DNA of 39,378 nt, taken from Holosporaceae bacterium (lineage in GTDB: Bacteria > Pseudomonadota > Alphaproteobacteria > UBA3830). The translations under genes and the position numbers were made by a program. The notes beneath the pieces were generated by a model. The model did not search any database and was not told where the DNA came from. It saw only the letters and a list, made by a program, of their open reading frames with translations. Positions within the stretch are counted from its first letter, which is position 1. Each line of letters starts with the position of its first letter. Below are positions 490 to 37,987 of the stretch, piece after piece. The stretch lies in NCBI GenBank assembly GCA_031283965.1, contig JAITAU010000064.1, forward strand, positions 1 to 39,378. The letters are read 5' to 3'.

Positions 490-743
490 TAATAAGGCCA
501 AAAGGGTGATTCCAAACCCTGAAACGGAGCCTTTTCGTTTGTTTCTCATCCTTCTCCAATCATTTTTCTATCTTTTTTAGCGAATCATCCGTCATAATGC
601 CCATTCGTCCTCTTTATATGGGCTCGCTTTCCCGCAAAAAATGCCATTTACGATGTAATCTTTGAAAAAAGTTTATAGTTAACACAAAAGCAACACTTTT
701 TATGTTTAATCCACCCTAGGTCGTAATGCTGGGATGAAGAACA

Positions 744-2969
744 ATGCGCATAGACATAATCGTTCCCGATTTTGATGATTCATCAAACGAAGTGATACTT
801 TCTTCTTGGTATAAGAAAATTGGCGATAAGATTTTCAAAAACGAAATCATCGCAGACGCTGAAACTCCGTCTGTAGCCTGTGGAATTACCTCAAGCTATG
901 ACTGCGTATTGGCTAAAATTCTTGTTAAAGAAGGCGAGTCCATCGCTCAGGGTACTAAAATAGCCGTCATCGAAACAGATTTAAACGCTGCTGCAGATAT
1001 TAGCCGGCAGACAGAGGTGGAGGACGCAGAAAATATGTCCAAAATGATAGATCCACAAATCCAGAAAGATAAGCAGGAATATGATAAGGAAAACGCCAAT
1101 AAATCCCTGAACGGCAAGGGCTATTCCCTTTCAATACCATCCGATGGCGCCGGCGCCGCCGACATCGTCGATCACTCCGACGCCGCCCCAGACCTCGTTG
1201 ACCACTCCGTCGCTGATGATGAAGAAGAAAAAATCCTCAACGGCGCCAGCGTTGAAGCGGAAGAAAAATTTAAAAACATCCTCCGGGAAGCCGAAAGCGT
1301 GGCCAAGGAGGAGGCGAAAAAACTGAAGGAAAAAGTACTGGAGGACACCATGGAGCAGGCGCGCGCCCAGGCGGAGGAATTGAAGTTGCAAATCATGAAG
1401 GAATACGGCGAAAAGGCCACCAAAGAAGCCAGTGAAATGCACCATAAAATAGTTCAAGAATCTCTGCAGGAGGCCGAAAGCACCAAGATAAAGCTAATAG
1501 AAGACATCCACAAGAAGGCCCTACAGGAGGCGGAGGAGGCGAGAGAAACCATCATCAGGGACGCCAAGAAGAAGGGAGAAGAGGAAGCCAGTACCATCCT
1601 GGAGGAGACCGTCTCTCGGGCTAAGGAAAAAGCTAAGTCTGAAGCGGAGGATGCCTCCAGAAAGATAATAGAGGACAGCATCCAGGAGGCAAAGTCTGAG
1701 GCGAAGGCCATAAAGAAGGACATCATCCATTCGGCCCAAAAGCATGCCGTGAAGGAATCCGAGAACATCATCAAAAATATAATAAATCAGGCGAGACAGC
1801 GTTACGAGAGTCAGGTCAGAGAGATAATGGCCGCCAACGAGCTGGCTGTGCAGGAGGCTGAGCAGCTGCGCAAAGCTACTCTGGATACCATGCGCACCGA
1901 GGTCACCGAAACCATGAATTTGACCCTACAGTCCGTGATCAAGGAAATACGCCATTCGCTCAAACTCTCCATTGAGGAGGTGGTGAAAGAGGTGAAATCC
2001 AGCATTACTACCATGGTGACTGAGGTGAAAAATTCACTGGAAAAGGATTACGAGCGCGAAAGGGATTATGAGCGCGAAAAGGATTACGAACGCGAAAGGG
2101 ATTATGAGCGCGATGAAAGGGAAGTTCGTCGGCAGCTGCAGTCGATACCGAGGGAGATCGATGACGATCGTCAACGGGAAACGGTGCGGAAGCTCCTCAG
2201 GACTGACGTCGACCGCCGTCCTGAAATCTACCCTGACAACTGGAACAAACCGCAATTTTTCGCATCTCCGGACGATCGTATGGAGCAGATGGATCCACTG
2301 AAGCGCCGTATTTTCGAGAAAATGAAGAATCACTATGATGCCTCGGTTATTTCCACCGTCTCCCATGACGTGGACATGAGCGCCGTTCTGGCACTGGAGA
2401 AAAATTTCGGCGAGGCGTTTTCCGAAAAACACAATGTTCGGCTAGGATTTACACCATTTTTTGTGTCCGCCTGCGTGCGCGCCCTGAAGCAATATCGCAT
2501 ATTCAACGCCCACATCAGGGGAGATGAGGTGATATACAAAAACAGCTTTGATATATCCATCATAACCTGCGGCAACGACGGCGTCGCAGCGCCTGTGATA
2601 AGACACGCCGACTCGCTCTCCATCGCCGAAATCGAAAGATCCATGATCGCTCTCTCCCAAAGGGCCGTCAACGGGACATTGTCCATCGAGGAGGTCTCCG
2701 GGGGAACATTTACGGTGGTCAACGCCGGAATTTATGGTTCCATCATGGGGACAGATCTGCTGACTCCACCACAAGTGGCTACTCTCAGTGTTCACAAGAT
2801 GCACCACAGACCTGTGGCCACCGAAGACGGCGCCATTGAAGTGAGACCGATGCTCTACATTTCCCTCTCCTATGATCACAGAATTTCCGATACCAAAAAA
2901 GCCTCGGAGTTCCTCGGGAAAATCAAAGAATACGTCGAAAATCCAGGGTGGCAGATCCTGGGGCTGTGA
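744..2969 (+). CDS. sucB: SucB-type 2-oxoacid dehydrogenase E2 acyltransferase homologue, atypical (degenerate lipoyl domain plus ~400-aa charged insert)
   Basis: The C-terminal ~230 aa align by eye with the E2 catalytic domain: RLGFTPFFVSACVRALK, GGTFTVVNAGIYGS, PPQVATLSVHKM, LSYDHRISD (the DHRxxD motif). The N-terminal ~78 aa are a biotinyl/lipoyl-type fold (VPDF...WYKKIGDKI...AKILVKEGESI). The middle is E/K/A-rich low-complexity helix. Confidence 0.85.
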   Translation: MRIDIIVPDFDDSSNEVILSSWYKKIGDKIFKNEIIADAETPSVACGITSSYDCVLAKILVKEGESIAQGTKIAVIETDLNAAADISRQTEVEDAENMSKMIDPQIQKDKQEYDKENANKSLNGKGYSLSIPSDGAGAADIVDHSDAAPDLVDHSVADDEEEKILNGASVEAEEKFKNILREAESVAKEEAKKLKEKVLEDTMEQARAQAEELKLQIMKEYGEKATKEASEMHHKIVQESLQEAESTKIKLIEDIHKKALQEAEEARETIIRDAKKKGEEEASTILEETVSRAKEKAKSEAEDASRKIIEDSIQEAKSEAKAIKKDIIHSAQKHAVKESENIIKNIINQARQRYESQVREIMAANELAVQEAEQLRKATLDTMRTEVTETMNLTLQSVIKEIRHSLKLSIEEVVKEVKSSITTMVTEVKNSLEKDYERERDYEREKDYERERDYERDEREVRRQLQSIPREIDDDRQRETVRKLLRTDVDRRPEIYPDNWNKPQFFASPDDRMEQMDPLKRRIFEKMKNHYDASVISTVSHDVDMSAVLALEKNFGEAFSEKHNVRLGFTPFFVSACVRALKQYRIFNAHIRGDEVIYKNSFDISIITCGNDGVAAPVIRHADSLSIAEIERSMIALSQRAVNGTLSIEEVSGGTFTVVNAGIYGSIMGTDLLTPPQVATLSVHKMHHRPVATEDGAIEVRPMLYISLSYDHRISDTKKASEFLGKIKEYVENPGWQILGL
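2043..2114 (+). repeat. In-frame tandem repeat, 4 x 18 nt (equivalently 2 x 36 nt), encoding (K/R)DYERE
   Basis: The units are aaggattacgagcgcgaa / agggattatgagcgcgaa / aaggattacgaacgcgaa / agggattatgagcgcgat, giving KDYERERDYEREKDYERERDYERD inside the E2 homologue. Confidence 0.9.
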
Positions 2970-3036
2970 GAAAGCATCCGTAATTCCAAAGAAGGCGGAA
3001 ATTTGGTACTCTGGACGCCCAACGTGGAGGATCCAG

Positions 3037-3399
3037 GTGCTCAGACAGCTTAACGTGCGCGATTACGAGATCCATCTTCTGCTGGGGAACAATGAATCCG
3101 AGAGGTTAAAAAAACAAAGGGTAATCCTCAACGTCAGTCTGCGATTCTCCGGCGACAACGGCGCCTGCCACAGCGATTCTCTGGAGGATACCGTCTGCTA
3201 CAGTAAATTGCTGGCCTTTATCGACGAAAAATTAAAAAATGCGAGATTTAATTTGATAGAACGGGCCGCAGAATTTCTCCACGACGAAATTTCCGATTAT
3301 TTGAACAACGGGGAGATTCTGGTACGGGTCAAGGTGGTGAAATTTCCATACGCCATAAAAAACCCGGACGGAGTCTCTTTCATCTGCTCCGATTGGTGA
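3037..3399 (+). CDS. folB: Dihydroneopterin aldolase family protein (FolB/FolX)
   Basis: LGNNESERLKKQRVILNVSL....SDSLEDTVCYSKLLAFIDEKLKNARFNLIERAAEFLHDEI matches the FolB pattern (E. coli IGVYDWEQ..QKLVFDIEM...SDDVADCLSYADI...ARFALVERVAEEV). The listed ORF starts at 2872, inside the upstream gene. I place the start at the in-frame GTG at 3037, but this is uncertain. Confidence 0.75.
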   Translation: MLRQLNVRDYEIHLLLGNNESERLKKQRVILNVSLRFSGDNGACHSDSLEDTVCYSKLLAFIDEKLKNARFNLIERAAEFLHDEISDYLNNGEILVRVKVVKFPYAIKNPDGVSFICSDW

Positions 3400-3613: not shown

Positions 3614-4561
3614 CTAGCCAATATTTCTGATGGCGTCCAGGATCACCGGGCCGAGCATGACGATGAAGAGGCAGGGCAGGGTGAAAAACACCATCGGCAG
3701 TATCATCAGCGTCGGGATTTTTGCGGCCTTGGCTTCGGCCAGCAGCATTCTCTTCCTTCTGGCTTCGATGGCGATGTTTTTCAGGGACACGGACAGCGAA
3801 GCTCCGTGCTCGATGGATTGGGAGATGGTTCTGGACACCACATTGATGGCCTGGGACTCAACCCGATCCTCCAGATTTCTGAAAACCACCTTATAATTTG
3901 GCATCATTTCCAATTCTATGGATGTGTAGGCTAACTCATCCCTTAATGTCCGGTTGGAAGACCGCAATTCTTCGGCAATTCTCTTTATGCATTTGTTCAG
4001 GCTCAGTCCGGCCTCAACGCAGATTATGAAAAGGTCGATTAGATCAGGGACTCCGCGGTCTATCTCCTTTTCTCTCTCCTGCGCCAGCATTGCCAATTGC
4101 AAATCCGTACACCAATGTCCCGCCATAATTCCAAACACCAGGGAGATAAACACCTGAATCACCATGGGAATGTTCCAAGCGGGACAATATGGCTCGATGA
4201 CTAGGTAAGCGCCAAGAAATAACACGACCATGGCTATCATTTTCATTCTCAGAAATTTTTCCACGGCGTCGTATTCCCTCATGCCGGCCTTTACCGTGAG
4301 CCGCTTTACCTTTTTCAAGAATTCCTGTTCCGCAGAAGAAATATTACTGAACACGCGACTTTTAAGGGTTCTATTTTTCCTGGTATCATTGCCGCGTCTG
4401 CGTTCTCTTATGGTGGCGGACGACGTTGCGACCCTGGAGATCTTCGATGTAATGAGCTCTGGCAGTAATTCTTGAGGACGCTTCCTGGTCCAGATGATAA
4501 TTGGCAGAACTATGGAAAACACCGTCGCAAAAATTATAAGATTCAGAATAAAGTTGCTCAT
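3614..4561 (-). CDS. tadC: Tad pilus inner-membrane platform protein TadC (T2SS-F family)
   Basis: Carries a T2SSF-type domain (VPDLIDLFIICVEAGLSLNKCIKRIAEEL...GASLSVSLKNIAIEARRKRMLLAEAKAAKIPTLMILPMVFF). It is the last gene of the cpa/tad operon and abuts the tadB stop. Confidence 0.85.
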   Translation of the reverse strand: MSNFILNLIIFATVFSIVLPIIIWTRKRPQELLPELITSKISRVATSSATIRERRRGNDTRKNRTLKSRVFSNISSAEQEFLKKVKRLTVKAGMREYDAVEKFLRMKMIAMVVLFLGAYLVIEPYCPAWNIPMVIQVFISLVFGIMAGHWCTDLQLAMLAQEREKEIDRGVPDLIDLFIICVEAGLSLNKCIKRIAEELRSSNRTLRDELAYTSIELEMMPNYKVVFRNLEDRVESQAINVVSRTISQSIEHGASLSVSLKNIAIEARRKRMLLAEAKAAKIPTLMILPMVFFTLPCLFIVMLGPVILDAIRNIG

Positions 4562-4562
4562 T

Positions 4563-5540
4563 TTACACAGTTATTTTTGATATTTTTATCATGGCAAACG
4601 TTCCCGCACAGAGTAAACAAAACGCTATTTTCAAGAGAACGATGCCGCCCGGCGTGAGGAAGCCGCTCAGATGATCCGGCTGCATAGTTCCGACGATGAG
4701 GGCAAAGACAAACGGTAGTGCGCTTATGATGATGGCCGACACCTTTGCTTCAGCCGACAGCGCCTGTATCTTCAATTCCAGCTCAGTTCTCTTTTTCACT
4801 ATGTCTGATATGTTTTGCAGTGTTTCGGTTAGGGACCCGCCGGTTTCCATCTGCAGCACCAGAGCTATAACCAAAAACCTGAATTCATCAATATCCACAC
4901 TGTCGGCGGCTTCGAAGAGAACTCTTTTGGGATTGATGCCCACTTCCATTCTTTGGCTGATGTCCCTGTATATGCTGGAGATTGGATCTCTTGTTTCCGC
5001 GCTTATCAGCTTTATCATCCTCTCGATGGTCAGACCAACCTGGACGTATCTGGTCATGGCATCCAGCACTTCCGGAAATTGATTAAGAAATTTCTTTTTT
5101 CTTACGGCGGACATGGATACAAAGACGCTATAGGTTACGTATGCTCCACAGCAGAAACCGATGATGGCACTCTTCAACACGTCCAAAAGATCCAACCAAG
5201 TTACCGCCACCGCCATAATAGAGCCGCCGATTATGCAGCACACAATGAAACGCTTCTCACTTACGTTGGTTATGCCGCCATTTTTCATGATTTCTTTTAT
5301 GCGTTCGCCGAGAGAAAGCGATTTCTGAATCTCTTTTTTTTGCGGCTTGCCGAAGGCGTTCGATTTGACCACCTTCACCCGTGTTTCCTGTAGTGCGGAA
5401 AAGTTCTCCAGCCTACTTTTGATTTTTTTGGATTCAGCATCTTTGGCTTTGCTTCGCATAACTAGCCAGCAGCCTCCCAAAAACAACACCAGCGTTATTA
5501 TAAACACCGCTGCATAAATCAGATACATGCTCTGCGTCAT
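4563..5540 (-). CDS. tadB: Tad pilus inner-membrane platform protein TadB (T2SS-F family)
   Basis: Carries a T2SSF domain (FPEVLDAMTRYVQVGLTIERMIKLI...METGGSLTETLQNISDIVKKRTELELKIQALSAEAKVSAIII). Its start overlaps the cpaF stop by 4 nt. Confidence 0.85.
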   Translation of the reverse strand: MTQSMYLIYAAVFIITLVLFLGGCWLVMRSKAKDAESKKIKSRLENFSALQETRVKVVKSNAFGKPQKKEIQKSLSLGERIKEIMKNGGITNVSEKRFIVCCIIGGSIMAVAVTWLDLLDVLKSAIIGFCCGAYVTYSVFVSMSAVRKKKFLNQFPEVLDAMTRYVQVGLTIERMIKLISAETRDPISSIYRDISQRMEVGINPKRVLFEAADSVDIDEFRFLVIALVLQMETGGSLTETLQNISDIVKKRTELELKIQALSAEAKVSAIIISALPFVFALIVGTMQPDHLSGFLTPGGIVLLKIAFCLLCAGTFAMIKISKITV

Positions 5541-6886
5541 GTTCCCAACCTCTCGCTTTTTTCGAATGCGCTTTTCATTATGGATAATAATTCTTCATCT
5601 AGGCCATAGGCGATCGCCTTTTGAACGAAGCTTGGACTGTCGGTCATGGCTCTAAAATCGCCCACCACCCGGTGATCCGGCGTTTCTCCAGTCGGCACAA
5701 ATTTAAATATGTCTTGACAATGTATGTCGCCTCTGTCGTCGATGCCGATTACCTCGGTGATTTCTGTGATTTTTCTACTTCCATCGTGTAGACGCTCCGT
5801 CTGCACCACAAGATTGACGGCTCCGGCGATCTGCATCCTCACGACCTCGTTCGGCAGGTTAAAACCAGCCATGGCCACCATGTTTTCCATGCGAACCAGA
5901 GCTTCCTTAGCGCTGTTGGCGTGAATCGTGGACATGGAACCGTCGTGACCGGTGTTCATTGCCTGCAACATGTCGAGACATTCCGCGCCGCGAACCTCTC
6001 CGATAACCATGCGGTCCGGACGCATACGGAGGGCGTTCTTGACGAGATCTCGAATCGTAACTTCCCCTTTGCCTTCGGTGTTTGGCGGACGGCTTTCCAG
6101 CCTCACCACGTGCGGCTGCTGCAGTTTCAACTCGGCCGAGTCCTCGCAGGTCACTATGCGATCCCGTGGGTCGATGAGCTGGGACAGGGCGTTCAACATC
6201 GTCGTTTTTCCGGAGCCGGTGCCGCCGGAGATGATGATATTCAAGCTGGAAATGGCGGCGATTCTCAATACCCTGTGCATATCCTGCGTCAAGGAGCCGT
6301 ATCCCGTCAATGCGTCCAAACCGACGGACTTTTTGAAAAACTTACGGATGGATATGGAGGTGCCATTGAGCGCCACTGGGGGGATGACGATGTTGACGCG
6401 GCTTCCATCCGCCAACCGCGCGTCGCAGAGCGGGCTGAAGGTGTCGACGTGTCTTCCAACTCGGTGAGCGATCCTTTGGGCTATCTGGGTCAAGTGGGCC
6501 TCGTCCCTGAATTTTATGTGAGTGAGCTCCAAAAAGCCCTTCCGCTCCACGTAAATTTGGTCGCAGCGGTTTATAACGATTTCGGTGATGGCGTCATCCT
6601 CCAGTAAAACTCCGATCGGGCCGAAGCCGATCATGTCGTCTACCAACTCGCGGGCCACCAGCTGCTGCTCGGATCTGGTCAGAGGGGCGCGTCTCTCATC
6701 CGTGTAATCGAAGACAAAATTTTCGACCTCTCCCAGCAGCTCTTCCGGAGTCATTTCGAAGGCAGAAACCAAATTTATTCGACTGAACAGCGCTTCGTAG
6801 GCGTCTTTCCTGAAAGAGTTCAGCAGAATAGACTCTTCCGGAGCCTCCGCCAATTTATCCGCTTGCGTGTTGGCCACTGTAGCCAT
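5537..6886 (-). CDS. cpaF: Tad pilus secretion ATPase CpaF/TadA
   Basis: Has Walker A GGTGSGKTT and the VirB11/GspE-like motifs CEDSAEL, RMRPDRMVIGEVRGAE and NTGHDGSMSTIHANSA. Confidence 0.93.
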   Translation of the reverse strand: MATVANTQADKLAEAPEESILLNSFRKDAYEALFSRINLVSAFEMTPEELLGEVENFVFDYTDERRAPLTRSEQQLVARELVDDMIGFGPIGVLLEDDAITEIVINRCDQIYVERKGFLELTHIKFRDEAHLTQIAQRIAHRVGRHVDTFSPLCDARLADGSRVNIVIPPVALNGTSISIRKFFKKSVGLDALTGYGSLTQDMHRVLRIAAISSLNIIISGGTGSGKTTMLNALSQLIDPRDRIVTCEDSAELKLQQPHVVRLESRPPNTEGKGEVTIRDLVKNALRMRPDRMVIGEVRGAECLDMLQAMNTGHDGSMSTIHANSAKEALVRMENMVAMAGFNLPNEVVRMQIAGAVNLVVQTERLHDGSRKITEITEVIGIDDRGDIHCQDIFKFVPTGETPDHRVVGDFRAMTDSPSFVQKAIAYGLDEELLSIMKSAFEKSERLGT

Positions 6887-6904
6887 TTTCGTACTTCCTC
6901 CGCG

Positions 6905-8125
6905 CTATTTTTTCTTGAATATACTTTTTATTTTATCCAATACTGCGCTTGTGTTTTTTCCTAAATTCTTCCCGATGCGCAGATAGTCAGTCTTACCCAA
7001 AATATCCTCCGCGATGCTCTCCAATGAGCTTGTCATGGCGCAGTTGATGGAGGCGAGCGGCTGGCCAATGTTGGCCGAAGCCAGCGGCATGCGATCATCG
7101 TGCGGCATAACATAGTCGATCTTGCGGGCAATCACCTCTTCGAAGGATTCTTTACTCAGAGCTCCGCTACTGGACATCCCGATCCTGTTGGCAACCACTA
7201 TGATCTTCTTGGTGGGATATCTGCTGTACAAGAATTGTAGTACGCGGACGGAATTTTGGACCGAAGCCACGCTCATTTCCACCATAAGAACGAAAATATC
7301 CGCTAGGTTCATGGATATTTCGTTGGCGGAACAGGGTTGCCGTTTGGAATCCACCAGCACATAGTTGAATCCCTCTTTGATGTAGCTCACCAGGGTTCCG
7401 AATGCCTCTGCATTGACGGTGTCGTCGTCGTTGAGATCCAGTAGTCCGTCCAAATAAAACAATCGTTGATCGTATCTTTTCAGAAATGTGTCCACGAAGT
7501 AGTCGTCGATTTTATCGAAGGATCCCAGAGCCTTTACGTAGGAGCTTTCGGCTCTTATATCCATCAACAGATGGGCGCTGCCGTAGCAAAAGTCTGTATC
7601 TATGACGACGGTGCGCTTGAAGTAGCGGTTCGACAACAGCCAACCGACATTCACCGCCGTAGTGGTGGCTCCGGCCCCGCCGACGGAGTTGGCGAAGTAC
7701 ACAAGCTTGCCGGATTTCCTTGTGATGCTCCTTCGGGCGACGTCTACGCCCTCAATTGCTCTTTGCACCAGATCGATGCTCAGCGGCTTCACCAGATAAT
7801 CGATGACGCCAATATCCATGAAGTCACGGAACAGTCCCACTTCATTCCTGCCGCCAATTATGATGAAGTTCACATCCGGCGCGGCGTATTCCTTGATCTT
7901 CGCCACCTCGCCAACCGGTAGTTCCAGCTCGGAGACGTCAATAATCAAAATTTTGGGCGGTTTATTTTTTTTCAGAAAATCCACCACATCCATGACGCCG
8001 CCGCGGAAGACCGACGAATGTGGCAGGCCCATTTTGTCGATGGTGGTAACGATAATCTGCTCGGATACAGAGTCGTCAACAAACCCAATTATGTTCCTCG
8101 ACAGCTCAGAATCATTTTCAGCCAT
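6905..8125 (-). CDS. cpaE: Tad pilus assembly protein CpaE/TadZ (receiver-like N-domain plus ParA/MinD-like domain with atypical P-loop)
   Basis: The N-terminus is a pseudo-receiver fold (ILIIDVSE...IIIGGRNEVGLFRDFMDIGVIDYLVKP). This is followed by FANSVGGAGATTTAVNVG (a deviant Walker A, as is typical of TadZ) and a MinD-like remainder. It sits between cpaD and cpaF. Confidence 0.85.
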   Translation of the reverse strand: MAENDSELSRNIIGFVDDSVSEQIIVTTIDKMGLPHSSVFRGGVMDVVDFLKKNKPPKILIIDVSELELPVGEVAKIKEYAAPDVNFIIIGGRNEVGLFRDFMDIGVIDYLVKPLSIDLVQRAIEGVDVARRSITRKSGKLVYFANSVGGAGATTTAVNVGWLLSNRYFKRTVVIDTDFCYGSAHLLMDIRAESSYVKALGSFDKIDDYFVDTFLKRYDQRLFYLDGLLDLNDDDTVNAEAFGTLVSYIKEGFNYVLVDSKRQPCSANEISMNLADIFVLMVEMSVASVQNSVRVLQFLYSRYPTKKIIVVANRIGMSSSGALSKESFEEVIARKIDYVMPHDDRMPLASANIGQPLASINCAMTSSLESIAEDILGKTDYLRIGKNLGKNTSAVLDKIKSIFKKK

Positions 8126-8161
8126 GGTAAAACACTTCTCTTGATCTCATTGTCCAATTCA

Positions 8162-8851
8162 TTATTTTGCAGCTCCTCCTGATGCTAGACCACCCGAATT
8201 GCCCTGTCCGGGAATCAACGAATCCGCCTTCATACCTTTATATTTTCTTGGAGCAATGATATCGGCGCTGTTGAATATCATTTCCCTAAGATTATAGGAG
8301 GCGGACGCTCCAAATTTCGGTATGCTTTTGTTGGTGTTTATGTCGCCTATGTCCTCGGACCATTTGTCGCAGTCGGTCATTGTTGCTTCGTATTTGAGTA
8401 TATCCATTCTGATTCCTGTTTTGGCGTCCCTGTAGACGCAGGCGCCGGAATCGATGATTCTGCTGTTGGGGAAACCGCATCTGTACATCGCTCGAAGAAT
8501 CTGTTTGCGGGCTTTTTCCTGCAGCTGAAGTGGTATTGGCTTGCCTGACATCAACGTAAACCCGATATTGCCGACTCCATTGCCCTTGGCGACCTGGAGT
8601 AGGCTCAGCATTCTCAACAATTCGCTATCCGGCAGGTTAAAATTCTGGTCTAGGCTGAAGAAATAAGAGATTTTATGTTCTTTCACATTCAGCGACGTGT
8701 CCTCTGGCGCGTATTCTTTGTCTATCGGATGTTGATAGTCGCAGCAGCCGCACAAAAGAAGACAAATGGCCGTCAGGAATCGCCCCGCTTGATAAATACT
8801 TGCCGGCGCGTTCGATGGATGACAGTTTTGTTCGCGCATTTCAATCCTCAC
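8162..8851 (-). CDS. cpaD: Pilus assembly lipoprotein CpaD
   Basis: The N-terminus is lipoprotein-like (AICLLLCGCC). It occupies the CpaD position between the secretin and cpaE. The C-terminal ...FGASASYNLREMIFNSADIIAPR resembles the conserved CpaD C-terminus. The start could instead be the ATG at 8839. Confidence 0.65.
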   Translation of the reverse strand: MRIEMREQNCHPSNAPASIYQAGRFLTAICLLLCGCCDYQHPIDKEYAPEDTSLNVKEHKISYFFSLDQNFNLPDSELLRMLSLLQVAKGNGVGNIGFTLMSGKPIPLQLQEKARKQILRAMYRCGFPNSRIIDSGACVYRDAKTGIRMDILKYEATMTDCDKWSEDIGDINTNKSIPKFGASASYNLREMIFNSADIIAPRKYKGMKADSLIPGQGNSGGLASGGAAK

Positions 8852-8852
8852 A

Positions 8853-10340
8853 TTACCTGATGATAAAGCCGGCGCTGTGGCTTTTACTTTTTTTCACACC
8901 GTGATGAAATTTCCTCATTAAAATTGAATCCACCGGAGAATACATTCGTGGCACCATATCAAGGGGAGTTTTCAAGGGGCGAGAGGAAGGCTTTACGATG
9001 TACGGGGTTATGATTATAACCAACTCCCTTTCATCCATTGTTACATTGGAATTTCTGAATAAAGTTCCTATCAGCGGCAGGTCTGCCAGTAGAGGAGTTT
9101 CCATTGATGCGGAACTTTTGTCGGTCTGTATTAGTCCGGCGATTGCGAGACTTTGGCCGCTTCCAAGTTCTATGGTGGTTTCGGCTTCTTTTGTGGTCAA
9201 GGATGGCGCTTGATCCTGACCATTCTCGGATATGACGCTGCTGATGACCGGCTTAACGGTGATGTTGATCCTGTCTTCGGATATGACCGTTGGGGTGAAC
9301 TCAATTGACGTTCCCCACGACTTAAATTCCATCGTGTTTGAATCGTTTCCTGACTGCTTTACTATGTAGCCCTTTTCTCCGCCGGACCTAAATACCGCTT
9401 TTTTACCGGATAGCGCAATCAGCGTAGGTTCTGCCAGCACAGATGCGTAGGTTTCATTGGCCAATGCCTCTATCAATGCGGAAAGTCCACTGGAAACGCC
9501 GGCATGCATGAGCCAGCGACCGCCATTAACGGCGAGGCTTTCCGTGCCTGCTCCCAAAGCGCCCTTTGTTATAATGTCGGATCTCAACGTGGCCATGTCA
9601 GCCTGTCCGAATGGTGGGAGCACATCGCTTCTGCCGGACATAAAGCCGTATACCACGCCGTTTGTGTTTTTGCCTGCGGACATGGCACGCCAATTTATGC
9701 CCAGGCTTTTTGTTAACTTCCGCGAAACCTCAGCTATTTTCACCTTCAGCATCACCTGCATGGCGGTTTCAATGGACAATTTATTGATGATTTTTCCCGA
9801 CGGCACGAATCTACTGATGATATCCTGGACGTCCAAAGCAATCTCCGGCGAGTAGACCTTCCCCTTCAGTATCACGGAATCATCCACTGAAACTATTTCA
9901 ATCTCCGCGTCCTGATGCATCTCTGCGACGGCCTCTCTCATGGCTTTTAGTGGATATGTCACTCTTATCTGATAGTCGGCGATTATTCGTCCGTTTCTGC
10001 CGTGCACCACCAGCGAAGTCACACCCGGAGCGAGTCCCATGAGATACAACGACGAGTCGTTGAGCATGTCCACGTCTGCCACTTCCGGCTTAGGAATGAA
10101 AATCTCCTGCGGTTTGCTCTTTAGCTTGATGAAATTTACGGAATTGACCTCTATCACCTTTTCTGCATTGCTGATATTCCCAGTAACATCGTTGTCGGAC
10201 TCGGCAGTCGCGTCTTCCGCGGTCCTGTCGTCGCTGGATTCTTCCATATTCTGCGCCTCCAGTGGCGCAACCGCATGGCAGCTGAAGGTAAAGCCGAGGA
10301 AAATGAGAAAGCATATGCCAATAAATCTGCTATTTTTCAT
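8853..10340 (-). CDS. cpaC: Tad pilus outer-membrane secretin CpaC/RcpA
   Basis: Has a signal peptide (FIGICFLIFLGFTFSCHA). The secretin C-domain reads VLAEPTLIALSGKKAVFRSGGE...LADLPLIGTLFRNSNVTMDERELVIIITPYIV. Confidence 0.92.
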   Translation of the reverse strand: MKNSRFIGICFLIFLGFTFSCHAVAPLEAQNMEESSDDRTAEDATAESDNDVTGNISNAEKVIEVNSVNFIKLKSKPQEIFIPKPEVADVDMLNDSSLYLMGLAPGVTSLVVHGRNGRIIADYQIRVTYPLKAMREAVAEMHQDAEIEIVSVDDSVILKGKVYSPEIALDVQDIISRFVPSGKIINKLSIETAMQVMLKVKIAEVSRKLTKSLGINWRAMSAGKNTNGVVYGFMSGRSDVLPPFGQADMATLRSDIITKGALGAGTESLAVNGGRWLMHAGVSSGLSALIEALANETYASVLAEPTLIALSGKKAVFRSGGEKGYIVKQSGNDSNTMEFKSWGTSIEFTPTVISEDRINITVKPVISSVISENGQDQAPSLTTKEAETTIELGSGQSLAIAGLIQTDKSSASMETPLLADLPLIGTLFRNSNVTMDERELVIIITPYIVKPSSRPLKTPLDMVPRMYSPVDSILMRKFHHGVKKSKSHSAGFIIR

Positions 10341-10441
10341 ATGATATTCTCCACATCAGCCACCCATACCAGCATGATGATCTGTATTTCCAAAGCTTAG
10401 CTCCAATAAATTCGCCAATTCATCCTCTTGTAACAGTGTCT

Positions 10442-11821
10442 TCATAAAAGTTTACCTACCTGTGGCAACATTCCTCCTACGCCGGATTTGATACTTGCCG
10501 CGGGATCTGATCCACCCTGAAGCACAGCTCCGGCGGCGCCGCCAATCAGGGCGGCCGGAACGGCGCTTCCGGCGTTTGCTCCCGCGCCTCCGTCCCTTTG
10601 GCCGTCTTTGCTGAAGGCCATTTTTTGTGGGTTCAATTTACGGTACAGCACCACTTCGCTCTTCTTTTCTGGCGTCTCTTTACCAACCATTCTTCCGCTG
10701 ACAATCTCGATTTTTTCCGACGAAGACTTGGCCCTGGCGCCGGAGTGCTCAGCTCCTGGGAATCTCCCTTTCTCTCCATTCTGGTCGCTCGCGCCGTCGT
10801 TGGCGGAATTCATGCTTTTTACTAGCAAAAACAGATCCTTTTCGTTCCTATTTTTCTTGTCCCTCTCCTCGATGATGGCGGCGGCAGAGGTCATCTTGTT
10901 CATGTTCATGATGTTCTGCAGCAAAGCCTCCTGGGCGAGTAACTTCGTGGCCTCTTCATCCTCGGTATTATCTTCCTCAGATTTCGGCGCCTCTGTGCTG
11001 CTGCGTATGGACAACACCACTCCGCCGTTCCCCAACTGTCGAAGCATGGTGTCCACAAGTTCTTCCTTCACCTCCAGCGTGATGTTTTTCGGAACAGCTG
11101 TGGTGCCAGGCTTTCCTTCGATCTTGCCCTTATCTTTATCTTCGATATTCTTTATGAATTTGGTGGCGCCGTCTATGGCCAGTATTTTCAATGCTTTGTA
11201 TTTGTGGGTTTTTATTTTGTCACCCCTCCGTTCCATTATCAGAGCGTCCACCAGATCGTTATAGCACAGCACGTTGAGGGAACTTGCGGACCTTTGGTCT
11301 ATGGGGAAGGTCACAGCCCTCATGCCGTTTCGGATGAACTCCGCGCTCGCCTTCTGATTTTCCAGCAATTTACGTGCTTTTTCATCCTTTTCCAGCTTTT
11401 TTTGTGGATCTTCCGCCGTCAACATCTTTATGGTGAGCGGAACGCCGGCTGGGATGTCGCTTGCAGCCCACATTTCCAGTGCTTTTCCGTAGTCTCCCTT
11501 GCTGTTCATGGGTGTCCCGCGGATATCCCTCGCTATGAACTTGGACTGAATGGCGGACAACGGCCATTTCCTCCAGGAGAGCATTTTTAACGTTATTTTG
11601 CTGTCCTTCTTTATGTCTTTGGATACAATAAGAACCTCGGTCTGCTTCTTGGCTTCCTCAATTATCAGGGGAATATCCCCCATGGACAGCTCTCTTTTCG
11701 GCGTTAGTAAATTAAAATTAGAGGTGGAGGAGATCAGGAGCAGCCTGACCCCGAAAGTAACGACCAGTGCCACCGCAAAGGCGATCATCACTATTTGGAT
11801 GATACTGTTTTTGTCGTTCAT
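10442..11821 (-). CDS. cpaB: Flp pilus assembly protein CpaB/RcpC with a long low-complexity C-terminal extension
   Basis: Has an N-terminal TM helix (IIQIVMIAFAVALVVTFGV) and a SAF/CpaB-like region (VLIVSKDIKKDSKITLKMLSWRKWP...IPAGVPLTIKML...GMRAVTFPID). I prefer the ATG at 11821, preceded by AGGTGG, over the TTG at 11839. Residues beyond ~280 are E/K/S/G-rich. Confidence 0.8.
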   Translation of the reverse strand: MNDKNSIIQIVMIAFAVALVVTFGVRLLLISSTSNFNLLTPKRELSMGDIPLIIEEAKKQTEVLIVSKDIKKDSKITLKMLSWRKWPLSAIQSKFIARDIRGTPMNSKGDYGKALEMWAASDIPAGVPLTIKMLTAEDPQKKLEKDEKARKLLENQKASAEFIRNGMRAVTFPIDQRSASSLNVLCYNDLVDALIMERRGDKIKTHKYKALKILAIDGATKFIKNIEDKDKGKIEGKPGTTAVPKNITLEVKEELVDTMLRQLGNGGVVLSIRSSTEAPKSEEDNTEDEEATKLLAQEALLQNIMNMNKMTSAAAIIEERDKKNRNEKDLFLLVKSMNSANDGASDQNGEKGRFPGAEHSGARAKSSSEKIEIVSGRMVGKETPEKKSEVVLYRKLNPQKMAFSKDGQRDGGAGANAGSAVPAALIGGAAGAVLQGGSDPAASIKSGVGGMLPQVGKLL

Positions 11822-11829
11822 GTTACCAC

Positions 11830-12426
11830 CTAACCACAAAACCTCTCGATTGCCACGTAAACTCCACCAAACGACAGTGCGATCCCGTAGGGCACCTCTT
11901 GTCTCGTAGCATGTGTCGGACAGTACTTGAGGGCAACTACCTTCCTACTAACCCTACCCAATGAAAGTAAAACAATATTTAACAGCGAAGATTTATTTCT
12001 GTTTCTCCCCGTTGCGTGTAGTCGCACCACCATTCTCCTTCTTATGAAGAAGATTTGTCGCCTGAAAAGCAGATAGAACAGCGATAAAATTGCGCCGCCG
12101 ACGGAGGTCCACAACAAAAACGCCAACACATCGCCTTCGGTAAACAGCAGCAGCGGCAGCAGAAGCTTCACGTCGCCGCCGCCAATGAGGTTGCGGTGGT
12201 TTAGGGGTAATGCGGCGACAAAGATTATGATAAAAATCCCGACGGCATTCCAGAAATCATGGCCTGATATTCCCAACGTGCAGGAGACGACGTATAGGCC
12301 GAGCAGAAACAGCGTATACTCGTCTTCTATTCTGAAAAAAAGGAAGTCGTTTAGGCTTATCAGCAGCAGGACCGTCACGAACATTAACCAGATTATCAAG
12401 GCATAATCCACTTGTGGTTCGCCCAC
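11830..12426 (-). CDS. cpaA: Prepilin peptidase CpaA/TadV (A24 family)
   Basis: A polytopic membrane protein with the two aspartate motifs expected for A24 peptidases (LNDFLFFRIEDE and GGGDVKLLLPLLLF). It is the first gene of the operon and starts with GTG. Confidence 0.85.
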   Translation of the reverse strand: MGEPQVDYALIIWLMFVTVLLLISLNDFLFFRIEDEYTLFLLGLYVVSCTLGISGHDFWNAVGIFIIIFVAALPLNHRNLIGGGDVKLLLPLLLFTEGDVLAFLLWTSVGGAILSLFYLLFRRQIFFIRRRMVVRLHATGRNRNKSSLLNIVLLSLGRVSRKVVALKYCPTHATRQEVPYGIALSFGGVYVAIERFCG

Positions 12427-12534: not shown

Positions 12535-12861
12535 TTGATGTTTTCTTTTAGTAAATCCTCCTATGAGTCGAAATTGATGGGGCTGCTGCAGGACAAGTTC
12601 TTCAAGACAGCGCGGCGGAATAAAATCCTGGCCCAGTGGGCCGGTGGGCGATTGGGCCACAGCGGCGCCACTTTGAATGGCTACGTTCGCAGCACCATCC
12701 TGTCCTATCTCGTATGTCCGGACGACGAGAAGATGGTGGCGCGTCTACTGAAGGATTTTCAGCGGCGTGGCGTCCACATGACGGAGGATACCATTCGCCA
12801 GAAAATGCAGGCTATTGAGACCAGAATCAGGAACAAATCCGAGCTGCGTGATGTCTATTAA
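12535..12861 (+). CDS. DUF1476 family protein, homologue of the alphaproteobacterial F1-ATPase inhibitor zeta subunit
   Basis: FKTARRNKILAQWAGGRLGHSGATLNGYVRSTI....PDDEKMVARLLKDFQRRGVHMTEDTIRQKM aligns by eye with the Paracoccus zeta subunit (FKAEARRNRLLGEWAAGLLGKTGDDARAYALTVV...PGDEDVFRKLAADL...EETIRAKM). The start is either TTG 12535 or ATG 12538. Confidence 0.8.
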   Translation: MMFSFSKSSYESKLMGLLQDKFFKTARRNKILAQWAGGRLGHSGATLNGYVRSTILSYLVCPDDEKMVARLLKDFQRRGVHMTEDTIRQKMQAIETRIRNKSELRDVY

Positions 12862-13606
12862 AATATCCATCCGCGATTCGGTCGCGCTGCTAACACTGGA
12901 CGACGACGCCAGGCTGAATGCCCTGTCGGACGACCTCATGGAGCGGATACATGTGGAGCTTTCTCGGGTGGAGGAGCGGGCGTCCGTCCTGGTGATCACC
13001 GGCGGCCCAAAAGCCTTCGCCGCCGGGGTGGACGTCTCCGAGATTGCCTCCCGCTCCCATGAGGAGGCGTATTTGGGGAATTTCATTGATCATCGCTGGG
13101 AGAGCGTCTTCAACGTTAAAATCCCCGTGATCGCCGCCATTTCTGGATATGCTCTGGGGGGCGGATTCGAGTTGGCCCTGATGTGCGACATTATTATCGC
13201 CTCCAGGAGCGCTGTTTTCGGATTTCCCGAGGTGAATCTTGGAATCTTGCCGGGAATCGTCGGAACACAGCTCATAACCCGGATCGTTGGGCCCCAGATC
13301 GCCGCTGAAATCATGATGACCGGCGATCATCTGTCGGCAGAGCGGGCTCTGGAATTAAAAATCGTCTCCCGAGTCGTCGAGGACCACGAACTACTGGAAA
13401 AAGCGTTGGAGTTGGCGGCAAAAATCGCAGGAAAATCCGTCCTGAGCACGCGCATGATAAAGGAAGCTATCCGCCTTTCCCAAAATGTCGGGCTCCTTCA
13501 GGGCATAAAAATGGAAAGACTGATGTTCCGATCCATGTTTTCCACCGATTCCAAAAAAACCGGCCTGGAGAAATTTTTTCAACGAAAAAACAGACCCAAG
13601 ACCTGA
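12851..13606 (+). CDS. Enoyl-CoA hydratase/isomerase (crotonase) family protein
   Basis: Has LTLDDDARLNALS, VLVITGGPKAFAAGVDVSE, ISGYALGGGFELALMCDIIIA and FGFPEVNLGILPG. I place the start at ATG 12851, which overlaps the upstream stop by 11 nt. The listed ORF starts at 12815. Confidence 0.9.
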   Translation: MSIKISIRDSVALLTLDDDARLNALSDDLMERIHVELSRVEERASVLVITGGPKAFAAGVDVSEIASRSHEEAYLGNFIDHRWESVFNVKIPVIAAISGYALGGGFELALMCDIIIASRSAVFGFPEVNLGILPGIVGTQLITRIVGPQIAAEIMMTGDHLSAERALELKIVSRVVEDHELLEKALELAAKIAGKSVLSTRMIKEAIRLSQNVGLLQGIKMERLMFRSMFSTDSKKTGLEKFFQRKNRPKT

Positions 13607-13910
13607 TTGAGAGTTGGCGCCCACTGAAAAGCGTCCCAACTGTACCTGAATTCACGGCTCCGGGTTACCTATGAAAAGAGTTAAGCCGGTTCTCGTTGGT
13701 CGCAATCTCCACCTCTAGTTTCTTGATGGCTTCCTGAATAGCGGCAGCACGAGAGAAGCACGTCATGTTAATATCATGAATGTCAAACATAGGAATGACA
13801 GTAGCCAGAGGATCATTTTTGCTAGTAGCCGTCGGTTGGAAAGAAAAAAGCGGCGCTCCCGGGGCGAAATGAGATAATATAAACCCTGGGACAGCAATGG
13901 AGGGGACGCG

Positions 13911-14780
13911 TTGCCCAAGGTTTCGGTGATTATCCCGGTCTACAACGCCGGGAAGTTTCTTGCTCGCTGTTTGGACAGCGTTGTTCAACAGACGCTGCAG
14001 GACGTCGAAGTGATATGCATAAACGACGGCTCCACGGACGATTCTCCAGAGATTCTGGAGAAATACGCCGCAGTTGACGGTCGCATTATCATTTTCCATC
14101 AGGATAATCTCGGTCAGGGAGCAGCCCGCAACGTCGGCGTCAGAGCCGCTCGCGGCGAATATATCGGCTTCGTGGACGCCGATGACTGGATAGAATTCCA
14201 CTACTTCGAAAAACTATACGCCGCCGCAAAGAAGCACGACGCTCCTCTGGCCTGCTGCGGTATTCTGAGAAAATACCCCTCCTCAAGATCCAGAATAAAA
14301 TTACATATCAGAGAAGAAAAAGTCTTTTACTCGACTCTGGAAAAGTACGCTGTCGCTGGAATCCCAAGGCGCTGCTACGTCTACAACAAAATCTACCGAA
14401 GGGCCGACATGGAAAAGCACGGTCTCCTCTTCCCGGAGGGGGTGTATTTTGAAGACATTGGCTTCAGCATTAGGGCGATACACCTCTTGGGAACTCTGGT
14501 GACCGTTCCGGGAGTGGTTTATTTCTACTGGGTGAACCGTCGGTCCACCACCAGACAGATGACGGACAAGAAGCAGCGGGATCTGTTGGCGGCCCGAGCT
14601 GATTTCATAGATTTCACCACTCGGCGGCACATAAACTGTCCGGAAAAATATTACATAAAAAGCAAAACTGTCTACAGACTCTTCGGCGTGCCGTTGATGA
14701 AGGTGTGCGCCTGGGAAACCATCAAAAAATATTACCTCTTTTCCCTAATACCGATTTTCGAGAAGAGGATTTCCCTGTAG
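13911..14780 (+). CDS. Family 2 glycosyltransferase
   Basis: Has VSVIIPVYNAGKFLARCLDSVVQQTLQDVEVICINDGSTDDS...GQGAARNVGVRAARGEYIGFVDADDW (the DxD-type GT-A signature). The start is TTG, with GGAGGGGA 5 nt upstream. Confidence 0.9.
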   Translation: MPKVSVIIPVYNAGKFLARCLDSVVQQTLQDVEVICINDGSTDDSPEILEKYAAVDGRIIIFHQDNLGQGAARNVGVRAARGEYIGFVDADDWIEFHYFEKLYAAAKKHDAPLACCGILRKYPSSRSRIKLHIREEKVFYSTLEKYAVAGIPRRCYVYNKIYRRADMEKHGLLFPEGVYFEDIGFSIRAIHLLGTLVTVPGVVYFYWVNRRSTTRQMTDKKQRDLLAARADFIDFTTRRHINCPEKYYIKSKTVYRLFGVPLMKVCAWETIKKYYLFSLIPIFEKRISL

Positions 14781-36809: not shown

Positions 36810-37280
36810 TTACCTAGTAAGCCGACGCAGATCTTTGGAGTCCACATCGACTGACATTCTGCGGCCCGTTTCATCTATTTTCTCCGAAAGTTTTTCCATC
36901 ACCAGGTCGGAGAGCTTCCCCAGGAGGAGATCCTTCTGGCGCGCCAGCTCAGTCTCCAGCCGCGACTTCAGCTGGGATTCATATTTTTCCTGCAACAGTC
37001 GGAGTTGCCGCTGATGCTCCGCCTCCAGCCGCTCGATCTTGCTAATCGAGGCCCGCCGCGCCTCCTCCAACGCGCTTTCCATCTCCCGTTTGTGGGAGTG
37101 GGCCTCTTTGAGGGCCGACGTCGCCTCCTCCCTCAATAATTCCGCTTCATGGATCTCGTTTTCCACGGATTCGATATGTTTGTCCAGCGCCTTCGTGATA
37201 TTCGGATAGATTTTCCTCATAAAAATCCAGGAAAATCCGAGAAAAGATATGACCACAGACAATTCTGGGCTGAAATTCAT
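36810..37280 (-). CDS. atpF: ATP synthase F0 subunit b
   Basis: Has a single N-terminal TM helix followed by a long charged helix. It is the last gene of the a-c-b'-b cluster and overlaps b' by 4 nt. Confidence 0.85.
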   Translation of the reverse strand: MNFSPELSVVISFLGFSWIFMRKIYPNITKALDKHIESVENEIHEAELLREEATSALKEAHSHKREMESALEEARRASISKIERLEAEHQRQLRLLQEKYESQLKSRLETELARQKDLLLGKLSDLVMEKLSEKIDETGRRMSVDVDSKDLRRLTR

Positions 37281-37726
37281 GATTTTTCTCCGGTCGATGG
37301 GTAAATTTTGTTCAGAGCCGAGCTAACGACGAGGTCAATCTCGGCGGCCATCACCCCGAAGGTCTCGGCGGAGGATTTCGATAATTCCAGCTGTTCTTTG
37401 TGGTATTTATCCGCTGCCAGAGCGGCGGCGCGTTCCCTTTCCCGGGCCGTTTGCTCCGCCATGTCCGCCATCAACTTCGCCTCGACGGCGGCCGCCTCCG
37501 CCTGAACATGATCCAGCGCAGCCGAAGAATCGCTCCGAAGAGACTCGGCCTCCGCTTTTAATTTCTCGGCTCTCCCCCGGATATCGCCCACAAAGGTTGA
37601 CCTCTGTTCCATAATATCTCGAATTTTCGGAGCCACCACGACGTCGATGAAAAGGTAGGTGACGGAGAACCCCAGCAGGATCCAGAAAATCTGCGAAGGG
37701 AATGTGGCTACATCCAGCTGTGGCAA
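37277..37726 (-). CDS. atpF2: ATP synthase F0 subunit b'
   Basis: Begins MPQLDVATFPSQIFWILLGFSVTYLFI (the typical b' N-terminus), followed by a charged helix. It sits between c and b, the alphaproteobacterial arrangement. Confidence 0.85.
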   Translation of the reverse strand: MPQLDVATFPSQIFWILLGFSVTYLFIDVVVAPKIRDIMEQRSTFVGDIRGRAEKLKAEAESLRSDSSAALDHVQAEAAAVEAKLMADMAEQTARERERAAALAADKYHKEQLELSKSSAETFGVMAAEIDLVVSSALNKIYPSTGEKS

Positions 37727-37736
37727 GGATCACCGT

Positions 37737-37964
37737 CTAGTTTTTGAACAGAATCAACAGCGCCACCAGAAGAGCAAAAAGGGCGATGGACTCCGTCAAA
37801 GCAAAACCAAGAATGCCGGCGAATCTAATTTTATCCTCCGCCTCTGGGTTTCGGGCCACCGAACTCATCCAGGTGGAGAACAAATTCCCCATGCTAAGGC
37901 CAACGCCAAACAACGCAAAGACGGCGGCGGCGGCGCCGATCATACGAGCAGCTTCAGTGGACAT
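37737..37964 (-). CDS. atpE: ATP synthase F0 subunit c
   Basis: A 75-aa helical hairpin with ARNPEA in the loop and the carboxylate in GFALTESIALFALLVALLILF. Confidence 0.96.
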   Translation of the reverse strand: MSTEAARMIGAAAAVFALFGVGLSMGNLFSTWMSSVARNPEAEDKIRFAGILGFALTESIALFALLVALLILFKN

Positions 37965-37987
37965 AATCTCTTCCCCCGTAACAAAAA

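Follow-up and report, generated by a model that had tools for sequence, protein, structure and literature searches.

The stretch of DNA considered here (the window) comprises 39,378 nucleotides (nt), positions 1 to 39,378 of the forward strand of contig JAITAU010000064.1, from a Holosporaceae bacterium (assembly GCA_031283965.1). It begins with the 3' end of a 23S ribosomal RNA (rRNA) gene at 1-301 and a 5S rRNA gene at 373-488, and 255 nt beyond the 5S gene starts an open reading frame (ORF) whose product resembles SucB, the E2 component of 2-oxoglutarate dehydrogenase (E2o). The encoded protein consists of a lipoyl-fold head without a lipoyl-lysine, a long helical insert and an E2-type core (Table 1), and is a functional member of an undescribed family descended from SucB. 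This family is confined to a Holosporaceae-like alphaproteobacterial clade found in ruminant-gut metagenomes and, judging by isolate codes, in termite-gut metagenomes. A literature search for the head-stalk-core architecture or for an E2 in Holosporales found no description.

The head matches PF00364, the lipoyl/biotinyl fold, over residues 5-76 with 31.7 bits (cutoff 22.1), bearing out a first-pass annotation of this DNA that had aligned the first ~78 residues with a lipoyl domain by eye. In an AlphaFold2 (AF2) model the domain forms 7 strands with a per-residue confidence (pLDDT) of 85-91. The same annotation had seen no lysine to lipoylate, and here too the profile and multiple alignments agree with it. 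Positions 861-872 read gaa act ccg tct, encoding E40, T41, P42 and S43, and phmmer, which matches the domain to lipoyl domains in the PDB at E 1e-9, pairs ‘aetpsvacg’ with ‘vetdkatvg’; Pro42 and Ser43 therefore sit at the canonical Asp-Lys positions. A MAFFT alignment with six canonical E2s has an identical register at the hairpin tip. Because the Asp-Lys tip is lost, the domain cannot be lipoylated. This loss is a property of the whole family, as a tip Lys is found neither in the 43 aligned family clusters nor in 7 further representatives (~50 clusters altogether). No other positions in the domain are as poorly conserved as these two, with Ser, Pro, Ala, Asn and others at position 42 and Ser, Thr, Gln, Met, Phe, Leu or Arg at position 43, while two of the new representatives from the module search described below keep an Asp at the tip (ETD[TQ]). 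The domain is otherwise uniform: it is 78 residues long in all 43 members, with a mean pairwise identity of 74%.

Two cysteines of the Lys-less barrel, C46 (879-881) and C54 (903-905) in ACGITSSYDC, are invariant in all 43 family members. A redox dithiol in lipoate's place was considered for this pair and is not supported, as C46, three residues from the tip, would be too far away to reach the active-site channel. In the alignment with the human pyruvate dehydrogenase E2 (E2p) lipoyl domain, C54 is paired with a Cys and C46 with a Val, and both are therefore probably core positions.

Besides the lipoyl-lysine, the family lacks the peripheral subunit-binding domain (PSBD) by which an E2 docks its partners, as the first-pass annotation had also noted for the window protein. 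PF02817 (E3_binding) has no match in the whole protein at E<=1, nor in the segments 79-169 and 433-509 at the relaxed E<=10. It is likewise missing from the precomputed Pfam lists of all family members, whereas the canonical E2 matches carry it. A vestigial PSBD was sought in the pre-core segment EIV[KR]KLL, which is like helix 1 of the E. coli PSBD (AIRRLLAE); neither the GxGxxGR loop nor helix 2 is present, however, and a hidden Markov model gives no support, leaving the resemblance as a lead only. Judged from these sequence features, the protein cannot carry a lipoyl arm nor dock E1 or E3 by the known route, and cannot function as a normal E2.

The other end of the protein is well preserved. 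The last ~230 residues had been read as a catalytic domain retaining the DHRISD motif, and PF00198 (2-oxoacid dehydrogenase acyltransferase) indeed covers residues 510-734 with 191 bits and includes the motif (D711-D716). Among NCBIfam models, sucB (TIGR01347) ranks first with 299.9 bits, under its curated equivalog cutoff of 378.65, and NF004309 scores 294.7 bits against a cutoff of 449 that is not reached. The best PDB sequence match of the core is the catalytic domain of E. coli SucB (196 bits, ~40% identity), and Foldseek places the core of the AF2 model, which was made from the family alignment, on E2o cores with template-modelling (TM) scores of 0.82-0.92 and a root-mean-square deviation of ~2.2 Å. 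The C-terminal tail is also highly conserved, with E732, N733, P734, G735 and L739 invariant and W736 and L741 at least 90% conserved.

Within this preserved fold many E2o-invariant positions have changed. Among 79 columns that are invariant in five canonical E2o sequences, 45 are kept and 34 are changed; at 11 of these the whole family shares a single new residue, and several of the 11 lie in a conserved loop after the FT(I/V)xN motif. The equivalent of E. coli Gly380 is Thr in all family members, and the Glu382 equivalent is variable. Thr323 is replaced by Val, Ile or Leu across the whole family, the only ‘catalytic’ substitution that is fixed. A dead enzyme on the grounds of the lost Thr323 was considered and rejected, since the E. 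coli E2o mutant T323A keeps 45% of its activity (PMC5986005), and the family's change to Val or Ile therefore does not kill the enzyme. Furthermore, the catalytic His has become Gln (YDQR) in two independent cases, P0041 (1082 residues) and P0060 (1908 residues), both otherwise conserved. Taken together with the catalytic residues that are kept, this pattern indicates a remodelled active site, with the constraint on catalysis relaxed, not absent.

Head and core are joined by an insert that the first-pass annotation described as a ~400-residue Glu/Lys coiled coil with a loose periodicity of 16-18 residues, a description that has to be amended in both respects. The helical part comprises ~270 residues (168-436 in the AF2 model) and follows an acidic linker of ~85 residues, most of which is disordered. 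A conserved Q-G-S break lies at residues 237-239. AF2 places helices at 80-120, 168-231 and 238-436 and disorder at 123-168 (pLDDT 30-44) and over the KDYERE repeats at 433-472 (pLDDT below 50), and the linker (residues 79-160) has a net charge of -13. The period, moreover, is exactly 19 residues. Family-averaged hydropathy over residues 168-345 has a single dominant period of 3.78 with a power 31 times the variance, bulky hydrophobic residues in this region are spaced 14+4+1, and residues 161-350 written in rows of 19 give ten in-register repeats with the consensus xxxAxxxAxxEAxxhxxxI/L. A period of 19/5 = 3.8 (the nonadecad) is a recognised class of non-heptad coiled coil, and values above 3.63 lead to right-handed supercoiling (PMC8016460); the stalk module sustains this periodicity over many turns. 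Two other types of helix were considered and rejected. A classical heptad coiled coil is contradicted by the period of 3.78 and the lack of a 3.5 peak, and a single-alpha-helix (ER/K) domain by the composition, which is 43% charged, ~22% bulky hydrophobic and 10% Ala with a clear Ala/Ile seam.

The repeat module is found in no other protein context. A profile of the module has no significant match in Pfam or the PDB (best E 0.65 and 0.089, respectively), and kinship with ATP synthase b, V-ATPase E, FliH, apolipoproteins and DivIVA was rejected on the same grounds. A search of 1.84 billion representative proteins with this profile returned 11 clusters at E<=1e-10, all of them at E<=1e-58 and all E2-like proteins of the head-helix-core type. 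Six of the 11 were new to the family set, and all six, 842-1908 residues long, have the head-helix-core order. Among these representatives and at that threshold, the stalk module thus occurs in the head-helix-core architecture only.

The insert had further been described as ending in KDYERE repeats. The repeats are present and can be refined to a tandem array at the DNA level: Tandem Repeats Finder reports 18 nt x 4.1 at 2040-2113, encoding (E/R)KDYER, and a second array of 30 nt x 2 at 1154-1213. Both arrays lie in length-variable regions, and such tandem repeats explain the length variation of these regions.

The family was delimited by a search of 5.8 billion proteins, which yielded 43 full-length relatives of 635-1204 residues, 38-71% identical over the best local alignment. 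All named relatives among them are labelled as Holosporaceae or as an alphaproteobacterial metagenome-assembled genome (MAG), and the hits ranking after the 43 are ordinary SucB proteins whose match is confined to the core. In total, ~50 orthologue clusters of 635-1908 residues are known, and 40 family loci were located among 185,579 species genomes; the window protein itself is in neither the protein nor the genome collection. The record titles of many loci mention samples from the rumen, omasum or cecum of deer, yak, goat or buffalo, and the isolate codes of many others point to termite-gut surveys. Examples of family-bearing MAGs are JAIRZM01, JAGCFW01 and CAJODB01. The window itself is linked to this clade by its ATP synthase a subunit, which is 73.5% identical to that of one family-bearing MAG. 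One MAG, Ncb351_bin115, carries two family genes (loci L006 and L030) of 716 and ~900-930 residues that are 65% identical, being either paralogues or the product of a mixed bin.

Conservation within the family follows the domain boundaries. The N-terminal barrel (1-78) and the core (510-741; 231-277 residues, median 231, mean pairwise identity 75%) change least. The first helical block (166-345) has a length of 159-187 residues and an identity of 53%, and is flanked by two highly variable regions, the acidic linker (79-165; 44-193 residues, 26%) and the second helical block (346-470; 74-477 residues, 23%). The comparison of orthologues for insert length and for the ratio of nonsynonymous to synonymous divergence (omega), which the first-pass annotation had recommended, hence revealed a stalk of nearly constant length between variable flanks, as well as purifying selection. 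In codon alignments of 36 full-length genes (Nei-Gojobori method, 23 pairs with a core-domain synonymous divergence of 0.05-1.5), omega was 0.00-0.05 in the Lys-less barrel, 0.03-0.11 in the repeat module, 0.02-0.10 in the core, 0.07-0.19 in the variable helix and 0.10-0.37 in the acidic linker. All parts are under strong purifying selection, with omega at 0.00-0.11 in the structured domains.

The reading frames themselves are overwhelmingly intact. Two of the 41 related loci are cut by contig ends, and a full-length frame is present in 36 of the remaining 39. The other three, which are the kind of orthologue that had been named as a possible sign of decay, have a single lesion each: an in-frame TAA at codon 479 in L014, an in-frame TAA at codon 250 in L020, where the family consensus is Gln, and in L024 a frameshift within a threefold AGGCAAG repeat (L024:5360-5390). 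As conserved sequence continues 3' of each lesion, the two in-frame TAAs, both in ruminant-gut MAGs, and the frameshift may represent assembly errors, very recent lesions or read-through. The earlier argument that an intact frame and conserved motifs speak against decay is therefore strengthened by the orthologues.

Table 1. Coordinates of the E2-like gene and its parts in the window
Feature	Position	Strand	Basis or remark
Sigma-70-like promoter match TTAACA-16-TATGTT	679..706	+	38 nt 5' of ATG; weak, consensus match only
ORF, E2o-derived protein (lipoyl-fold head, stalk, E2 core)	744..2969	+	741 aa, complete, ATG start
Residues 1-78, lipoyl-fold beta-barrel without lipoyl-lysine	744..977	+	PF00364, PDB matches, AF2
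Codons P42-S43, hairpin tip at canonical Asp-Lys positions	867..872	+	Hidden Markov model and MAFFT alignments
Residues 79-160, short helix (80-120), then acidic variable disordered linker	978..1223	+	Charge, pLDDT
Residues 161-350, ten 19-residue (nonadecad) repeats, predicted continuous helix	1224..1793	+	Hydropathy period, family alignment
Residues 351-470, variable-length helical extension (to ~436), then low-complexity (E/R)KDYER hexapeptide array	1794..2153	+	
Residues 471-509, conserved pre-core motif Q.EIV[KR]KLL...PEMYADNWNKP.FF.SP.D, no PSBD	2154..2270	+	
Residues 510-741, E2o-type acyltransferase/core domain	2271..2966	+	PF00198
V659, equivalent of E. coli E2o Thr323	2718..2720	+	Val/Ile/Leu in every family member
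D711-H712-R713-I714-S715-D716, equivalent of E. coli Asp374-His375-Arg376...Asp379	2874..2891	+	
C-terminal ENPGWQILGL, same length as E. coli EDPTRLLLDV tail	2934..2966	+	

The genomic surroundings of the gene are also unlike those of a canonical sucB. Searches with tblastn for E. coli AceE, SucA, Lpd, LipA and LipB gave zero hits in the window and 43 related loci (~590 kb), where the related loci span ~10 kb around the gene and the negatives are local in scope. No gene resembling E1, E3 or a lipoate enzyme was recognised in the 39-kb window either, and the Pfam lists of neighbours on three large contigs agree. The gene had been called an orphan without a sucA or lpdA neighbour; this holds for the window and the related loci, and orphan status is thereby shown locally.

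Its position directly after an rRNA operon, a second feature noted in the first-pass annotation, is correct for the window and is not that of most relatives. In 24 of the 41 related loci (within L003-L038) the gene is directly preceded on the same strand by uppP/bacA, encoding undecaprenyl-diphosphate phosphatase (PF02673), with a gap of ~70-130 bp; for example, uppP lies at L014:5994-6830 and the E2-like gene starts at 6920. The pair recurs in genomes that are deeply diverged, although BacA itself is only ~40% identical among the uppP-linked loci. In the window, where the rRNA genes lie upstream, and in its closest relative this pairing is lost. As for the promoter match listed in Table 1, the number of sigma-70-like sites in the region is not in excess of the shuffled expectation.

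Downstream of the E2-like gene, the window encodes folB, a Tad/Flp pilus operon, an enoyl-CoA hydratase, groEL, peptidoglycan and outer-membrane genes, rpoH and an F-type ATP synthase. The FolB (dihydroneopterin aldolase) ORF at 2872-3399 (+) shares, as listed, 98 nt with the 3' end of the E2-like gene; its Pfam match begins at residue 61, so that the real start is probably downstream (~nt 3050). The Tad/Flp pilus cluster at 3614-12426 (-) is complete, with TadC, TadB, the CpaF ATPase, a CpaE-like protein, CpaD, the CpaC secretin, CpaB/RcpC and a prepilin peptidase. Three ORFs have no Pfam match at E<=0.001, namely one of 653 residues at 17456-19417 (-) and those at 13665-14201 (-) and 23827-24366 (-). 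The enoyl-CoA hydratase gene lies at 12815-13606 (+), and genes for the ATP synthase subunits a, b and b' lie at 36810-38710 (-); a membrane ATPase and some acyl-CoA metabolism have therefore been kept, despite the lack of visible 2-oxoacid dehydrogenase partners.

What such a protein might do is best approached from its architecture. Our preferred reading, to which we assign a probability of roughly 0.45, is that the E2 core has been repurposed: independent of lipoate and self-assembling, it would carry coiled-coil stalks with binding heads. The C-terminal domain would still build an E2 core based on trimers, probably a 24-mer cube as is typical of E2o; the match of its fold to E2o cubes and the conserved tail of canonical length are indirect evidence for such a cube. 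The nonadecad helices would join into right-handed coiled-coil stalks that keep the Lys-less barrels, as protein-binding heads, at a distance of tens of nanometres from the core. The protein would thus serve as a lipoate-independent scaffold or tether and would not carry acyl groups on a swinging arm in a 2-oxoglutarate dehydrogenase complex; acyl-CoA transacylase chemistry may still take place at a residual level, although the canonical cycle would not be what is selected. The first-pass annotation had already raised a repurposed E2 core with long charged arms as one of its two options, and the conserved core, the C-terminal motif and the family-specific stalk module fit that idea.

Several observations weigh against this scaffold or tether. 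Oligomerisation and coiled-coil formation are putative, the AF2 model being that of a monomer only, with a predicted TM score (pTM) of 0.38, and the head has no known binding partner. The one recurrent neighbour in the related loci is uppP, while def-fmt, accC and an amino-acid permease are found in subsets of them, and none offers an obviously related functional clue. The absence of E1, E3 and lipoylation genes is established locally and not genome-wide. Finally, the equivalents of the catalytic residues Asp374, His375 and Asp379 are retained in 43, 42 and 42 of the 43 aligned clusters, respectively. Eukaryotic E3BP, an E2 paralogue with a structural role only, has lost the catalytic His; retention in this family therefore argues that ligand binding or catalysis still matters.

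A bolder version of the scaffold is conceivable, in which the E2 cube has become a cofactor-free, self-assembling ‘spiky’ particle, a 24-mer with right-handed nonadecad stalks of 30-45 nm or more whose Lys-less heads bind a new partner, and hence a new class of bacterial intracellular scaffold. The stalk length finds an extreme in P0060, where ~1,600 residues separate the head from the core. We consider a particle of this kind unlikely. The uppP linkage, which is present in most genomes, may point to a role in the cell envelope or in cell shape.

The first alternative takes the retained catalytic residues at face value and regards the protein as a neofunctionalised enzyme, with the core an acyl-CoA-dependent transacylase under selection that would use an acceptor other than its own lipoyl arm, for example free dihydrolipoamide, a small thiol or a protein recruited by head and stalk. 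D711, H712 and D716 have counterparts in E. coli E2o that matter for the rate, with effects of 54-fold (Asp374), 54-fold (His375) and 11-fold (Asp379) upon mutagenesis, and the only fixed ‘catalytic’ change, that of Thr323, is a tolerable one (PMC5986005). Moreover, many channel positions that are invariant in E2o carry one and the same new residue throughout the family (G326A, F329Y, P336D, G347S and G381T in gene numbering), and such fixation is the pattern expected for a changed substrate, not for lost constraint. The E. coli catalytic domain also works on a lipoyl domain supplied in trans (PMC5986005). Against such an enzyme stand the two independent natural His-to-Gln variants, given that E. 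coli mutants with Ala, Cys or Asn at His375 retain only 0.5-2% activity (PMC5986005), as well as the lack of conservation at the Glu382 equivalent. There is also no candidate acceptor, and no acyl-CoA-producing partner is encoded nearby. An altered transacylase is accordingly somewhat unlikely in our estimate.

A second alternative would keep the protein in central metabolism, as the E2 core of a working 2-oxoacid dehydrogenase that uses lipoyl domains in trans, with E1 and E3 encoded elsewhere and docking in some novel way, such as on the stalk. The retained catalytic residues would suit this arrangement, and actinobacterial OdhA, which uses the lipoyl domains of E2p, is a precedent. Lipoyl domains in trans are a known solution in E. 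coli as well, where the E2o catalytic domain (CDo) accepts the separate lipoyl domain (LDo) (PMC5986005). However, the protein has no PSBD that could hold E1 or E3, and neither of these components nor LipA or LipB is encoded within ~10 kb in the related loci or in the window. The score also falls short of the sucB equivalog cutoff, His-to-Gln variants occur, and the gut samples are taken to be anaerobic, a setting in which an oxidative tricarboxylic acid (TCA) cycle step would not be expected. We regard this arrangement as improbable.

A decaying sucB relic whose frame stayed open by chance, to which the three lesions among 41 related loci and the loss of the lipoyl-lysine and PSBD might point, is rejected by the low omega (0.00-0.11 in all structured domains) together with the intact orthologues, the more so as the Lys-less domain, of invariant length, is constrained more than any other part and the family has acquired a new conserved module.

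Comparison with known systems underlines how the family combines familiar parts in an unfamiliar way. SucB itself (E. coli SucB; PDB 1E2O, 1SCZ and 1C4T; TIGR01347) shares the N-terminal lipoyl-fold barrel, the PF00198 core at ~40% identity and a TM score of up to 0.92, the Asp374/His375/Asp379 equivalents and a C-terminal tail of equal length. The window protein differs from it in lacking the lipoyl-lysine and PSBD, in ~430 inserted residues including the nonadecad-repeat helix, in the 34 of 79 changed invariant positions, in its sub-cutoff equivalog score and in a gene that is not beside sucA or lpdA. Another E2 derivative is E3BP (protein X, PDHX) from the pyruvate dehydrogenase complexes of eukaryotes, a paralogue of E2 that no longer performs every task of an E2 and has an architectural role in the core; PDB 6h60 is among the PDB matches of the core studied here. 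The resemblance lies in the partial surrender of E2 function, whereas the parts surrendered are reversed: E3BP keeps a lipoylated Lys and a binding domain and loses the His, while the window family has lost the former two and mostly kept the His (42/43).

Actinobacterial OdhA/Kgd offers an E2o-type catalytic domain without its own lipoyl arm. Structures of the trimeric AceF of Corynebacterium (PDB 6zzi-6zzn) are among the core matches. In contrast to the window protein, OdhA is fused to E1o, uses E2p lipoyl domains and has no Lys-less barrel or coiled-coil stalk; no E1 domain was found in the window protein with Pfam, and none adjacent to its gene with tblastn. The stalk, in turn, resembles non-heptad right-handed stalks (nonadecad 19/5, pentadecad 15/4 and hendecad 11/3; YadA/SadA, tetrabrachion and the peripheral stalks of rotary ATPases) in its 3.8 periodicity, its Ala-rich seam A..A..EA..h...I/L and its long uninterrupted helix. 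It differs in having no sequence similarity to solved structures or Pfam families and in being joined to an E2 core, and its packing into a supercoiled bundle is putative. Membrane-fusion adaptors such as HlyD and AcrA likewise combine a Lys-less lipoyl-like barrel with long helices, but these are periplasmic and carry a helical hairpin inside the lipoyl-like domain, whereas the window barrel is contiguous from Met1 to residue 78 and is followed by helices and then by the E2 core.

The family has implications beyond this contig. For coiled-coil research it provides a natural long nonadecad helix, a module of exact 19-residue repeats found in no other protein context. E2 cores serve as engineered nanoparticle platforms, for which a variant that bears stalks by nature may be useful. 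Public records label the family proteins as ‘2-oxo acid dehydrogenase subunit E2’ or ‘2-oxoglutarate dehydrogenase E2 component’, and such labels would falsely assign a TCA-cycle step to these reduced genomes. The E2 is a textbook swinging-arm enzyme, defined by its lipoyl-lysine and its E1/E3-docking domain; this family has dropped both and yet is under strong purifying selection, which shows that an E2 scaffold can take on work other than 2-oxoacid oxidation.

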